Source of the DNA: a virus
Lineage: Duplodnaviria > Caudoviricetes
Virus record (IMG/VR): IMGVR_UViG_3300029305_011823
DNA: 64,000 nucleotides
Strand: one strand, 5' to 3'
Position numbers and translations under genes: made by a program. Shown here piece after piece: positions 2,175 through 37,596 of this stretch (positions are counted from its first letter, which is position 1; each line of letters opens with the position of its first letter). Below the pieces are notes generated by a model. It was not told where the DNA came from and did no database searches. It was given only the letters and a program-made list of their open reading frames with translations.

Positions 2175-2303
2175 AATATATTATTATTTCTATTCACTAT
2201 TATAATATAGCATTGAAATTCTACGTTTTACACTTTTAATAATATATTAATATTTCTATTCACCTATATAATATAGCATTGAAAATCTCATCAATTACAC
2301 TTT
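2175..2303 (-). promoter_or_regulatory. two tandem early-type promoters (TATATTAT-N6-G) within a 66-bp-period direct repeat
   Basis: Near-identical copies at 2175-2236 and 2241-2303; minus-strand TATATTAT at 2202-2209 and 2268-2275, each followed by N6 and G (2195, 2261). Confidence 0.65.
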
Positions 2304-4526: not shown

Positions 4527-4973
4527 ATGGCTAGAAGTAATTTTAGAAATAGATCTACAATGAAAGAAGTAATTGAAGAGGGATTAGAACTAAAAATGAC
4601 AATAAAGGATTTATGCTTTAAAGAAGTAATTACAAACAGTTCGGGTGATATGTTTGTAATTAATATGTATAACCTTTATGAAAAATATTATGAACTATTA
4701 CTAGAAGATGTTACGACTGTAGTATTAACTGAACAAGAATATCTTAAATATAGATATCAACCAAGATTATTAGCTAAAGACCTTTATGGTAATCCTGATA
4801 TATATTATTTATTATTACGTCTTAACTATGTTTATTCTGTAATAAACTTTGATTTTAAAGAAGTTAGAGTATTCAAACCTTCAATTGTTTCATTGTTAAA
4901 TGAAATTTTAGTAATGGAATCTGAAGATTATATAGACAACGAAATGTCGGTACTTAAGAAGATAAATGAGTAG
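4527..4973 (+). CDS. putative baseplate wedge protein (T4 gp53/LysM-like)
   Basis: YRYQPRLLAKDLYGNPDIYYLLLRLN matches the P..LA..LYG....W.IL..N motif. Confidence 0.6.
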   Translation: MARSNFRNRSTMKEVIEEGLELKMTIKDLCFKEVITNSSGDMFVINMYNLYEKYYELLLEDVTTVVLTEQEYLKYRYQPRLLAKDLYGNPDIYYLLLRLNYVYSVINFDFKEVRVFKPSIVSLLNEILVMESEDYIDNEMSVLKKINE

Positions 4974-4992
4974 TGTATACTCATTTATCTTC
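4958..4992. terminator. bidirectional terminator hairpin between convergent genes
   Basis: GAAGATAAATGAGTA/TACTCATTTATCTTC inverted repeat. Confidence 0.7.
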
Positions 4993-5001
4993 GTTTTGTT
5001 G

Positions 5002-5087
5002 TATTGAGACCGACTGATATAAAAATACCAATCGAAAGAATAACTTTCGCTATTCCCTACCCATAAACTGCATGGATAATCTCAATA
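5002..5087 (-). ncRNA. candidate structured RNA, four-way junction
   Basis: 8-bp closing stem plus three hairpins (8, 8 and 11 bp; one GAAA tetraloop); all 7 non-WC pairs are G-U on the minus strand. Confidence 0.6.
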
Positions 5088-5146
5088 TAAAAATATAAAA
5101 TAATAAAAAATTAATTCTAAATATTCATCATTTGTTTATTGTGTTA

Positions 5147-7087
5147 CTAAGCTGCTATCATACCTGCTAATGCAGGATTTCCAAAACCACTATCTGGTAA
5201 TGTATCTAAAACGTTTCCTTCTCTATTTAAATTACATTCAGGTGTTACTGTTACTTGCTTTTTCTTACTAGGTTTATCAAATAATCCAGTTGTATTACTT
5301 TGTTTAGTTTTAGGTAATTGAGACTTATCACCTTTAAATTCTAATTCTTTTACTGTTAACCAAATAGGTTTACCATGTTCATCAAATAAATCGTAATCTT
5401 TTTGGAATGCTATCTGACTTCCTTCAACATAAGGTATAAAACATCTTGCCGCATTATGTCTACCTGCTCTTGATTTTATAACTAATGCCTCTAAATGTGT
5501 AAATTTGATAGCATCTGATAATTCATCTCTCTCATAATTTTCTGATGTTTGTGCAAATACTAATGCGAAATCGGCACATTCAACAACACCTTTTGATTCT
5601 GAGAATACTGTCTCAGGACAATCTTTAGGTATTACACTTGTCTCCATTTTTCCTCTTGCTTTGAAAACTTCGTTACTCATTTCAACTTTAACTTGTGATG
5701 CTGTTATAACTGCAACGTCACATTCTATTGCTAAAGCACGTAAATCTGAAGTTATATTATCTATTCTTATTCTGTTTTCAACATGGTTTTCAACTGGTTT
5801 AAATCCTTTAAGATAATCGGCAATTACTGCTACTACTTGTAATTTTTCTGACTCTCTTAATATTTCTATATCTCTTATTATTTCATTTTTAGAATATGAA
5901 TTATTTGGAACTTGTATAAATCTTATTCTAGTTGGTGTATGTCTTGATAATATTCTACTTGCTTCAACTAATTCATTTTCTATTTCTTCATTACTTAATC
6001 TCATTTTTTCTCTTGTTAATTCATCTTCCCAAGATATATCTGTACCAGTTAACATTTTTATATATCTACCTTTTATATCTTCTACACCTGTTTCTGCAGA
6101 AATGTATAATATACATGGTGTTAATCCTGGTTCATGTTTAACTTGTGGATTATATAATGCCATATCTATTGCAGAACTTATCATCATTGTAGTTTTACCG
6201 TTTCCTGATGGAGCACCGTAAACCATAAGTTGTTTTGACTCTAATCCTCCACCTGTTATCATATTTAACCAACGATGACCAAATCTAAATTTATTACAAC
6301 CATTTACTTGTAATTGTAAGTTTCTTTGGTTCTCATCTCTACATTCTTCTTCATTTAAGTTTGCTGTAAATCCTGTTTCTAACGCACTTTTTCCTACTTT
6401 ATTATCCATATTTAATCTATAGAATTTTTGTCTATTTCTCTCTATTTTTTTCTTTAAATTTATATAATCTTCTTCAACGTCTTTACCTTCTCTCAATCCA
6501 TCGATTGTAGCTTGTAAAGCTTCATAATCTTCACATTGTTCAAATAAGAATTTATTTTTTGATATTCTATTTACCATATAATTAAATGCTGATTCTGAAA
6601 GATATTTATACATATCTGAATCACTCATATGTCCTAAATATTCATCTATCGGTAATTCTTTTTTAACATGATTTACTAAATCTAAATATCCTATTTCTTT
6701 TTCCACTCCTGTATCGCAATAATCTAGAAACGCATATCCCGAACATATACCTTTATTTCTAGCGTCTATTGCTGTTTTACACCATTGAATCATATCATAT
6801 ATCTTAACATCTTTAATGTGTTTTAATGTTAATTGATTTACAAATGTCTCTAATAATCCTGTTATATAATTACTTTTCTTTGGATATTCGTCAAATAAGA
6901 AATATAAAACCATATCCTTTATTATAAATTCAGGCAGACCCTGTAATAACTGTTCCGTATCAGTTTTCTTCATTTTATTATAATTCTCTAAGAATTTATT
7001 TTTTCCACTTGTTTGTATTAAGCTATTTCCTGAAACTGTTCCATCTCCATGGAATGTTACGGGTGCTTGTAAATTGTTATTATCCAT
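5147..7087 (-). CDS. DnaB-like (SF4) replicative helicase
   Basis: GAPSGNGKTT, VIADYL, ITASQ, FSES, IKSRAG SF4 motifs. Confidence 0.88.
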   Translation of the reverse strand: MDNNNLQAPVTFHGDGTVSGNSLIQTSGKNKFLENYNKMKKTDTEQLLQGLPEFIIKDMVLYFLFDEYPKKSNYITGLLETFVNQLTLKHIKDVKIYDMIQWCKTAIDARNKGICSGYAFLDYCDTGVEKEIGYLDLVNHVKKELPIDEYLGHMSDSDMYKYLSESAFNYMVNRISKNKFLFEQCEDYEALQATIDGLREGKDVEEDYINLKKKIERNRQKFYRLNMDNKVGKSALETGFTANLNEEECRDENQRNLQLQVNGCNKFRFGHRWLNMITGGGLESKQLMVYGAPSGNGKTTMMISSAIDMALYNPQVKHEPGLTPCILYISAETGVEDIKGRYIKMLTGTDISWEDELTREKMRLSNEEIENELVEASRILSRHTPTRIRFIQVPNNSYSKNEIIRDIEILRESEKLQVVAVIADYLKGFKPVENHVENRIRIDNITSDLRALAIECDVAVITASQVKVEMSNEVFKARGKMETSVIPKDCPETVFSESKGVVECADFALVFAQTSENYERDELSDAIKFTHLEALVIKSRAGRHNAARCFIPYVEGSQIAFQKDYDLFDEHGKPIWLTVKELEFKGDKSQLPKTKQSNTTGLFDKPSKKKQVTVTPECNLNREGNVLDTLPDSGFGNPALAGMIAA

Positions 7088-7205
7088 AATTATATTCTCC
7101 CTTCCGTATTTGAAAATTCAAATTTCTTTTTATAATATCAGTTTGTTAATAATAAAATATAATTTTATTCAATCGTTATAATAATGTTATTAAATAAAAA
7201 ATCAC

Positions 7206-7236
7206 TGCTTCAGAGCCGTCTACTAGCTCTGAAGCA
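7206..7236 (-). terminator. intrinsic terminator hairpin
   Basis: TGCTTCAGAGC/GCTCTGAAGCA, with a T-run downstream on the minus strand, after the SbcD-like gene. Confidence 0.7.
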
Positions 7237-11415: not shown

Positions 11416-11607
11416 TTATTTATTTATTATATTAAGTATATTAACTTTCTTATATAATTCCCAATTGTTCTTTAAAGCTTGGGTACATAAGTTTCTTATT
11501 GTATTTGTAAAAGTATTATCATTAGCAACTATTTGTAGCATATTATTAATATTTTCTTCATACATTTTTCTAAACTCAACATTCATTTCCATATAATCTT
11601 TATACAT
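11416..11607 (-). CDS. small hypothetical protein (start revised to MYKDY)
   Basis: GGAGGT RBS before ATG at 11607. Confidence 0.55.
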   Translation of the reverse strand: MYKDYMEMNVEFRKMYEENINNMLQIVANDNTFTNTIRNLCTQALKNNWELYKKVNILNIINK

Positions 11608-11666
11608 AAAACTACCTCCATTATTATTTGTTTTTATTATTAAAGAACACATAAAGTGTGACTTGA

Positions 11667-12184
11667 TTAACAAGTCACACCATTACATATATCAAATAGA
11701 TGTTGTATTCTTATTTCCATTTCTTGTATACCTTCAACGTTTTCTCCATTACTAGTTTTATCTAATACTTCTTGTAATTCTTCCAATGCAAATATAGCAC
11801 TTTGATATCCCATTTGTTTTGCAGCATATTCATCAGCTTCAAATTCATCATTTATATCTCTTTCATATTCATTATTGAATAATTTATCTTCTGTAGCATG
11901 TAGATTAAAATGTCCTATTCATGTGCTATTGTAAATTTTCTACCATTTTCACTCATTTCCATAAATCTATCATCTACAACTATCATAGGAACATAGTTAT
12001 CCATATTATCGAATTGTAAGAATCCAGCCATTGCTATAGCTAATCCGTTGTACATTAGTAATTCATTATTTCTTATTGTAACGTATCCATATTCATTTAT
12101 ATCTTTATCAGTTATAGCATCGTTTTCATCTACAAATACTCTAGTTTCTAATCCATTTATTATATTCATTAAATTATTTAACAT
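11667..12184 (-). pseudogene. HExxH zinc metallopeptidase (M48/ImmA-like), frameshifted at the active site
   Basis: ...KFTIAHE|TAG; the shifted frame continues GHFNLH...DEFEADEYAAKQMG...ALEEL; adding 1 nt restores HExGH. Confidence 0.7.
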
Positions 12185-12684: not shown

Positions 12685-12721
12685 CACTTTTATAATATGG
12701 TATCGAAATCCTGAGAATTAC
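12685..12721 (-). promoter_or_regulatory. early-type promoter
   Basis: Minus strand GTAATTCTCAGGATTTCGATACCATATTAT-AAAAGT-G, similar to the copies at 2175-2303. Confidence 0.6.
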
Positions 12722-37504: not shown

Positions 37505-37596
37505 TATTAATCTTTTATCTAAAAACAAATAGATAAGAGAAAAGGGCGTATAGAGATTTCTCTATACGCCTATTTAATATAGAAAGGAGAAAAAAT

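Follow-up and report, generated by a model that had tools for sequence, protein, structure and literature searches.

A predicted four-way-junction RNA conserved beside the DnaB-like helicase gene of uncultured AR9/PBS1-like jumbo phages

Several retroregulatory or stabilizing structures are known at the 3' ends of mRNAs, including lambda sib, which serves the retroregulation of int by RNase III, REP elements, and the cry terminator of Bacillus thuringiensis. Here, we describe an 86-nt element, a predicted four-way-junction RNA at positions 5002-5087 (minus strand) of the 64,000-nt stretch of viral DNA that we analyzed (hereafter, the window), that resembles these structures in lying past a coding region and beside a terminator and in having little constraint on its sequence. 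A further likeness, which for the element is proposed, is that shape acts on the fate of the upstream message. Unlike sib, REP elements, and the cry terminator, which are single and often interrupted hairpins, the element joins four helices without gaps and has kept wobble pairs at its branch point. Phage T4 encodes RNA C and RNA D (species 1 and 2), which are small, stable, structured RNAs that are not tRNAs, lie in a tRNA gene cluster, and are processed with the tRNAs. The element is likewise a phage-encoded, highly structured non-tRNA RNA; however, it most likely lies in the 3' untranslated region (UTR) of a helicase gene, the window is without tRNA genes, and no sequence or model similarity to the T4 RNAs was found.

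Other described systems share parts of the architecture. A four-way junction with a terminal stem is found in tRNAs, mascRNA, and plant-virus tRNA-like structures, the latter two at the 3' end of a longer transcript, but the element has no D or T loops, elbow, CCA, or discriminator, and its arms are long and its loops variable. A three-way junction, a ring-forming pseudoknot, and conserved nucleotides characterize the exonuclease-resistant xrRNAs of flavivirus 3' UTRs. Like them, the element is a compact, junction-based viral 3'-UTR fold that could leave a stable 3'-terminal fragment; unlike them, it has no conserved pseudoknot or loop complementarity. Loop-loop kissing between GAAA and UUUU loops, considered for the window, is not conserved in relatives. 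The complementary-strand origin of phage G4, with its three hairpins, also places adjacent hairpins on one strand near replication genes, but signals of this type are folded single-stranded DNA in single-stranded-DNA phages and plasmids, whereas the element has RNA-type signatures and a weak DNA fold. Finally, Skipping-rope RNA (RF02924) and other phage motifs in Rfam are, like the element, orphan structured RNAs from phage or metagenome sequence, but the element matches none of the 4227 models of Rfam 15: at the gathering threshold there were 0 matches in the window and 0 in eight relatives. A literature search found no description of an equivalent element. Published transcriptome maps of jumbo phages report a few sRNAs, without known functions (PMC11512511). 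The structured non-coding RNAs of these phages are almost unexplored, and the element is an unusually clean case, combining a fully paired four-helix junction, strong covariation, one syntenic locus, and a clear gain on a single branch within the AR9-like phages.

The element consists of a closing stem and three hairpins, and is supported by its minimum free energy (MFE), by covariance model (CM) matches in relatives, and by compensated pairs. The 5' strand of the closing stem, UAUUGAGA (5080-5087, minus strand, as are all parts of the element), pairs with its 3' strand, UCUCAAUA (5002-5009), for which fold and alignment agree. Fold and alignment likewise define arm 1 (5057-5079), with 8 bp and the 7-nt loop GCAGUUU, and, together with RNAalifold, arm 2 (5037-5056), with 8 bp and a GAAA tetraloop, which begins with one or more conserved G.U wobble pairs. 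Arm 3 (5010-5035), defined by the alignment, has 11 bp and a UUUU loop. All four helices are continuous, with no internal loops, and the closing stem and arm 3, if stacked coaxially, would give 18-19 bp, to be compared with the roughly two turns of dsRNA of an RNase III processing site. The minus-strand sequence from 5087 to 5002 given in an earlier note on this DNA matches the window exactly, and RNAfold reproduces the four-way junction drawn there, with its seven G-U pairs, the GAAA tetraloop on the middle arm, and a single unpaired junction base, a U (U52 in the register of that note).

Folding energies set this segment apart from the rest of the window. The minus strand of 5002-5087 has an MFE of -33.7 kcal/mol in RNAfold, and its centroid structure is the same four-way junction. 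The z-score is -7.67, and 0 of 200 dinucleotide-preserving shuffles fold equally well. The MFE of the plus strand is only -12.8 kcal/mol. A de novo scan for multibranched folds on both strands of the 64-kb window ranked 5002-5087 first by a wide margin; the runner-up, at -21.2 kcal/mol over 85 nt, lies within coding sequence.

The element lies in a replication and recombination module that includes genes for a Cas4-like exonuclease, an SbcD-like phosphoesterase, a DnaB-like helicase, and a Dda/Pif1-like helicase. The gene upstream of it, at 5147-7087 (minus strand), encodes the DnaB-like replicative helicase of 646 aa, assigned by the Pfam models DnaB_C and divDNAB. No Pfam domain covers the N-terminal ~250 residues (1-250) of this protein, and the C-terminal ~60 residues are its least conserved part in relatives. 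An AT-rich spacer of 59 nt (5088-5146, minus strand) separates the helicase stop codon from the element, and an A-rich 9-nt spacer, CAACAAAAC (4993-5001, minus strand), separates the element from a 15-bp hairpin at 4958-4992 that is common to two convergent transcription units. The earlier note had placed the element just before a terminator at 4958-4992. The hairpin is indeed there, but the terminator scan calls it a T-tailed terminator for the plus strand only (tail GTTTTGTTGT); in the window, the tail that follows it in the direction of helicase transcription is weaker. The convergent plus-strand gene, at 4527-4973, encodes a gp53-like baseplate wedge protein of 148 aa (Pfam Phage_gp53; PHROG baseplate wedge). 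The sequence of the hairpin is highly conserved in relatives (AAATGAGT...ACTCATTT), and its 5' half encodes the KINE* C-terminus of the baseplate-wedge gene, an overlap of coding sequence and terminator.

Transcription signals were assigned with the promoter motif definitions given for AR9 (PMC5312081). The motif scan placed the promoter region of the helicase unit at 7125-7188 (minus strand): the AR9-type late motif AACA-N6-TA occurs twice in it, at 7177-7188 and at 7136-7147, and the early-type motif ATATTAT-N6-R lies at 7125-7138. Since the terminator scan found a terminator of the preceding unit at 7206-7236 (minus strand), the helicase appears to form a transcription unit of its own. Between the helicase stop codon and the element, the window contains no strict late (AACA-N6-TR) or early-type (ATATTAT-N6-R) motif. 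With the upstream terminator and promoters, this supports a 3'-UTR placement, and in the simplest reading the helicase unit is monocistronic and most likely has the element as its 3' untranslated tail. A conserved AACACCTGAATG motif 159 nt upstream is not evidence of a promoter, since it falls within the conserved TPEC codons of the helicase. In three related loci (L006, L016, and L020), a strict late-promoter motif lies no more than 45 nt upstream of the element, and others have near-matches; given these motifs, independent transcription of the element may also occur.

We assembled 14 non-redundant related loci from IMG/VR, JGI, ENA, and Logan through their helicase homologues; the helicases are 48-94% identical, and the related contigs are 98-278 kb long. 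Each of the 15 related contigs that we examined has the closing stem and three hairpins in the same position, with fold z-scores of -2.3 to -9.0 across the 15 homologues. The dimensions are elastic: the element spans 72-118 nt in relatives, the closing stem has 6-14 bp, each arm has 5-15 bp, and zero to two bases at the junction are unpaired. Every related locus also has the common terminator hairpin, always 6-25 nt from the element. In two loci, L010 and L018, an extra ORF of 87-90 aa lies between the helicase and the element, and the element is still beside the terminator, indicating that it tracks the terminator and not the stop codon. This ORF (L010, 4963-5226; L018, 4973-5245) belongs to no known family, and in AR9 the same slot is occupied by the small ORFs g008 and g009. 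Elsewhere, L009 has a PemK-type toxin gene (1117-1482) inserted in the module, and L015 has a gene for a FolD-like methylene-THF dehydrogenase/cyclohydrolase (814-1659).

A covariance model built from three sequences retrieved four more at E ≤ 5e-9, yielding a seven-sequence alignment in which 96.3% of cells are standard pairs, compared to 32-52% when the partners are slid by 1-3 columns. Both sides have changed in 27 of the 35 pairs, and the observed score was attained by 0 of 500 shuffles. RNAalifold independently recovered this junction; in its prediction, 25 of 34 pairs are compensated and the covariation term is -8.28. These changes are distributed over the helices: double changes occur in 6/8 pairs of the closing stem, where the last pair (A-U) does not vary; arm 1 (helix 2) is paired in 100% of cells, with 5/8 pairs compensated and an invariant first pair, U.G, in the close subgroup; and arm 3 (helix 5) has 9/11 pairs compensated, its opening pairs, U.G and C-G, being invariant in the same subgroup. 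The flanks of the element diverge while its pairs compensate. The most distant members receive weak CM scores, yet they have the same topology with wholly different sequences (for example, L015, L016, and L019). The earlier note had named covariation in homologues as a check on its fold, and the outcome is a conserved fold with abundant compensatory change. By this criterion, applied to sequence comparisons, we consider the element to be a conserved structured RNA.

The junction itself fits two registers that are equally conserved in fold, alignment, and RNAalifold. In register one, U9.G31 and U53.G78 are paired and U52 is free; in register two, which is preferred by both RNAfold and RNAalifold, U9.G78 and G31.U52 are paired and U53 is free. 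The two registers are a one-step "branch migration" ambiguity. The branch-point bases, namely A-U, U.G, tandem G.U, U, and C-G, are kept in 10/15 members, and these positions are invariant among the seven close sequences. The junction sequences differ in the five most distant members (L009, L012, L015, L016, and L019). The loops differ freely in length and sequence between lineages, and GNRA loops wander among the three arms. The conservation of wobble pairs at the junction suggests specific recognition rather than a generic roadblock.

Several lines of evidence bear on whether the fold is selected in RNA or DNA, and on which strand. The MFE of the sense strand, that is, the strand in the direction of the helicase, is below that of the antisense strand in 15/15 loci. 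G.U pairs account for 73 of 538 pairs (14%) on the sense strand across the family, and 5/15 tetraloops are of the GNRA type on the sense strand, compared to none on the antisense strand (binomial P of about 3e-5 given composition). When folded with DNA parameters, the element reaches -10.6 kcal/mol, with a z-score of -4.4 and an ensemble frequency of 0.008. Because the folding bias, G.U pairs, and GNRA enrichment are all on the sense strand and the DNA fold is weak, these patterns make selection on the helicase-sense transcript more likely than a signal at the DNA level, whether a cruciform or a folded single strand. The suggestion in the earlier note of a novel non-coding RNA or 3'-UTR element is thus supported by the fold conserved in every member, by sense-strand selection, and by the lack of an Rfam match.

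The known classes that we considered do not account for the element. No family was assigned even at E ≤ 10, in agreement with the earlier note: a permissive Rfam scan of 4700-5400 at this threshold returned only chance matches elsewhere, and RF00005 was not among them. Self-cleaving ribozymes (hairpin, twister-sister, and hammerhead) were rejected on the basis of the continuous helices, the lack of conserved unpaired nucleotides, and the lack of an Rfam match. A riboswitch was rejected since the element is downstream of the gene, has at most two unpaired junction bases, and has no conserved loops. A base-pairing sRNA would be expected to have a conserved single-stranded seed, and the loops of the element differ in every lineage. 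In general, the absence of conserved loops and internal loops argues against seed pairing, ligand binding, and catalysis. The element is not itself an intrinsic terminator, as it is followed by the A-rich spacer and the terminator is the separate hairpin at 4958-4992. Just one ORF, of 20 aa on the plus strand, overlaps it, which argues against a coding function, and its single-copy, syntenic occurrence argues against a repeat or mobile element.

The element is present once per genome of ~200 kb, with one strong CM match in the window and one in each of four IMG/VR contigs of 98-228 kb. Searches for additional copies, with the CM on the window, the 14 loci, and the four whole IMG/VR contigs and with the fold scan of the window, found only the syntenic copy. 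The CM also gave a weak, unconvincing match at 37505-37579 of the window (E 4.6) and weak plus-strand matches within two loci, at 2768-2859 in L010 (21.4 bits, E 0.015) and at 2787-2869 in L018 (15.2 bits). The latter two fall where the phosphoesterase gene ends, a short way upstream of the promoter region of the helicase, and could be chance matches or a second structured element. A degenerate pattern comprising arm 3 and the closing stem matched more than 80 IMG/VR loci, none of which fits the model, and these were attributed to chance. A blastn search of the region against 50,697 phage records gave no match. The contigs of ~200 kb behind two of the loci, L002 and L003, are labeled "provirus" in IMG/VR though they carry the genes of a virulent AR9-like jumbo phage; this label is probably a classification artefact.

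Among isolated phages, the closest relatives of the helicase come from Staphylococcus jumbo phages and Bacillus phage AR9/PBS1 (24-26% identity). An exhaustive HMMER search indicated that the helicase clade is isolated, with two full-length clusters at 50% identity and the next relatives at no more than 35%. AR9 has the same layout, with g010 (baseplate wedge) convergent on the helicase operon. We examined four outgroups, namely AR9, Staphylococcus phage Machias, and the metagenomic relatives L151 and L150, and none has the element. In AR9, g009 is followed by a gap of 45 nt, in Machias the terminator directly follows the helicase, L151 has identical synteny and a 37-nt gap with a hairpin only, and L150 has no junction. 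Because these four outgroups lack it, we conclude that the element was gained on the branch leading to the clade, in a slot that elsewhere (AR9, L010, and L018) holds accessory ORFs. It is a real, clade-specific structured RNA of uncultured AR9/PBS1-like jumbo phages from gut and rumen metagenomes and a strongly supported new structured-RNA family, which would make a new family of the Rfam type.

We tentatively favor, among several possible functions, a cis-acting role in which the element is a nuclease-resistant, shape-recognized module at the 3' terminus of the helicase transcript. Selection that keeps shape and stability but not sequence, together with the location at the extreme 3' end of a replication transcript that is needed continuously, favors this reading. 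Under this proposal, transcription of the helicase unit would include the element as an untranslated 3' tail, and the element would act by virtue of its shape and stability instead of base pairing. The junction and terminator hairpin together would form a compact, nuclease-resistant, structure-recognized 3' domain of about 140 nt. This domain would set the fate of the 3' end of the helicase mRNA, as a stabilizing or processing site, and would probably persist as a stable 3'-derived RNA. Against the cis-acting module, the outgroups have a homologous helicase without the element, and hence the element is not needed for helicase expression as such. In addition, a terminator hairpin alone normally protects a 3' end, which counts against the need for a second structure. 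The late-promoter motifs close to the element in some relatives and the conserved wobbles of the junction are further points against this reading.

The absence from outgroups and the accessory slot fit an accessory, trans-acting RNA equally well, and we regard this alternative as possible and as nearly as likely as the cis-acting module. The element would then be an accessory non-coding RNA that serves as a structure-specific decoy or scaffold for a protein of the host or phage that recognizes branched or coaxially stacked helices. It would titrate or recruit this protein, candidates for which include a defence nuclease, an HU/HBsu-type protein, and a dsRNA-binding protein or RNase III. The suggestion of a protein-binding scaffold made in the earlier note is possible. 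The clade-specific gain, with four outgroups of the same synteny lacking the element, points in this direction, as do the small ORFs that occupy the same slot in AR9 (g008 and g009), L010, and L018. The junction-proximal U.G and tandem G.U pairs are kept while the remainder drifts, and the strict late motifs in L006, L016, and L020 lie directly upstream. HU-type proteins bind both junctions and structured RNA. On the other side, no promoter is consistently present, the junction sequences are not conserved in L009, L012, L015, L016, and L019, and no partner protein is identifiable: scans of the neighboring small ORFs with Pfam and PHROG found no RNA-binding partner, and outgroup L151, which lacks the element, has the same neighbor genes. 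A more specific form of this idea is that the element is a stand-alone decoy, an acquired RNA mimic of branched nucleic acid that sequesters a junction- or dsRNA-binding host factor or a defence protein (HU/HBsu- or RNase III-type, or a resolvase-like nuclease), with the two-register core of U.G and tandem G.U pairs as the recognition site. This form we consider rather doubtful.

The constant proximity to the terminator raises another explanation, that the element assists termination in the helicase direction. In this scenario, the junction would fold first and either shield the terminator hairpin from upstream RNA, as an insulator, or pause the phage RNA polymerase. The element always precedes the common hairpin by 6-25 nt, and the hairpin in the window qualifies as a terminator for the plus strand only, both of which are consistent with such a helper. 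However, most relatives have a U-rich tail in the helicase direction (for example, CTCTTTTATTA) and carry the element anyway, and the outgroups terminate with a hairpin alone. A three-armed junction is also far more elaborate than insulation needs, and we judge this explanation to be unlikely.

We find it quite improbable that the element is a single-stranded DNA signal, that is, a DNA cloverleaf that functions in replication as a site of primosome or helicase loading or of single-strand initiation. Its location among replication and recombination genes is compatible with such a role, and strand asymmetry, taken alone, would also be compatible with a DNA fold on one strand. The stability and ensemble frequency of the DNA fold given above speak against it, as does the G.U content, since these pairs, conserved junction wobbles included, would be G.T mismatches in DNA. 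GNRA enrichment is a further point against a DNA signal, and the structured strand is always the transcribed sense strand. GC skew along the window merely follows gene orientation, with no turn at the element and no signal of an origin, and the site is a convergent, not a divergent, gene boundary.

A tRNA-like processing signal is, in our assessment, very improbable. Cleavage by RNase P and/or RNase Z at the closing stem would liberate a small cloverleaf RNA and fix the 3' end of the mRNA, as with mascRNA, or the RNA would act as a decoy for an anticodon nuclease. A four-way cloverleaf whose closing stem has 6-14 bp is suggestive of such a signal, and RNase P tolerates substrates other than tRNA. 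Yet ARAGORN found no tRNA or tmRNA gene in the window, and the tRNA model gave no match at E ≤ 10. The earlier note had raised the possibility of a tRNA-mimic decoy, which these results do not support: the arms of the family are 5-15 bp, not 4-5 bp, no D-, T-, or anticodon-type loops are present, and the loops vary. In the window, where the arms are 8-11 bp, the central arm ends in GAAA and not in a 7-nt loop of the anticodon type, which argues against membership in the tRNA family (RF00005), and no NCCA-like 3' sequence is conserved. The remaining explanation, that the element has no function and is a chance or selfish palindromic (MITE-like) insertion that happens to fold, has a superficial basis in its 8-bp terminal inverted repeat, which recalls MITE ends, but it can hardly be entertained given the single, syntenic copy, the extensive compensation while the flanks diverge, which already disfavors it, and the strand-specific G.U and GNRA signatures.

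The element is a tractable model for a shape-only RNA in the terminal part of a phage replication transcript. Should it turn out to be nuclease-resistant or protein-titrating, it could serve as a compact, stabilizing 3'-UTR part for Bacillota.

Additional observations concern gene expression elsewhere in the window. A block of ~65 nt (TTTCAATGCTATATTATA[A/T]...GTGAATAGAAATA) is duplicated at 2190-2280 (minus strand), upstream of the gene at 1658-2119. Each copy holds an AR9-like early core, ATATTAT-N6-G, and similar cores occur at 12685-12698 and 7125-7138 (minus strand); cores of this type are probably early promoters of the phage, used by the virion RNA polymerase. The late motif AACA-N6-T[AG] is strongly depleted window-wide: it occurs 97 times, whereas shuffles predict 170 +/- 14, a deficit that fits selection against spurious promoters. 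The product of an 85-aa ORF at 11416-11673 (minus strand) weakly matches the anti-sigma-F factor Fin, below the threshold (E 0.0015), which may hint at a spore-forming host among the Bacillota.
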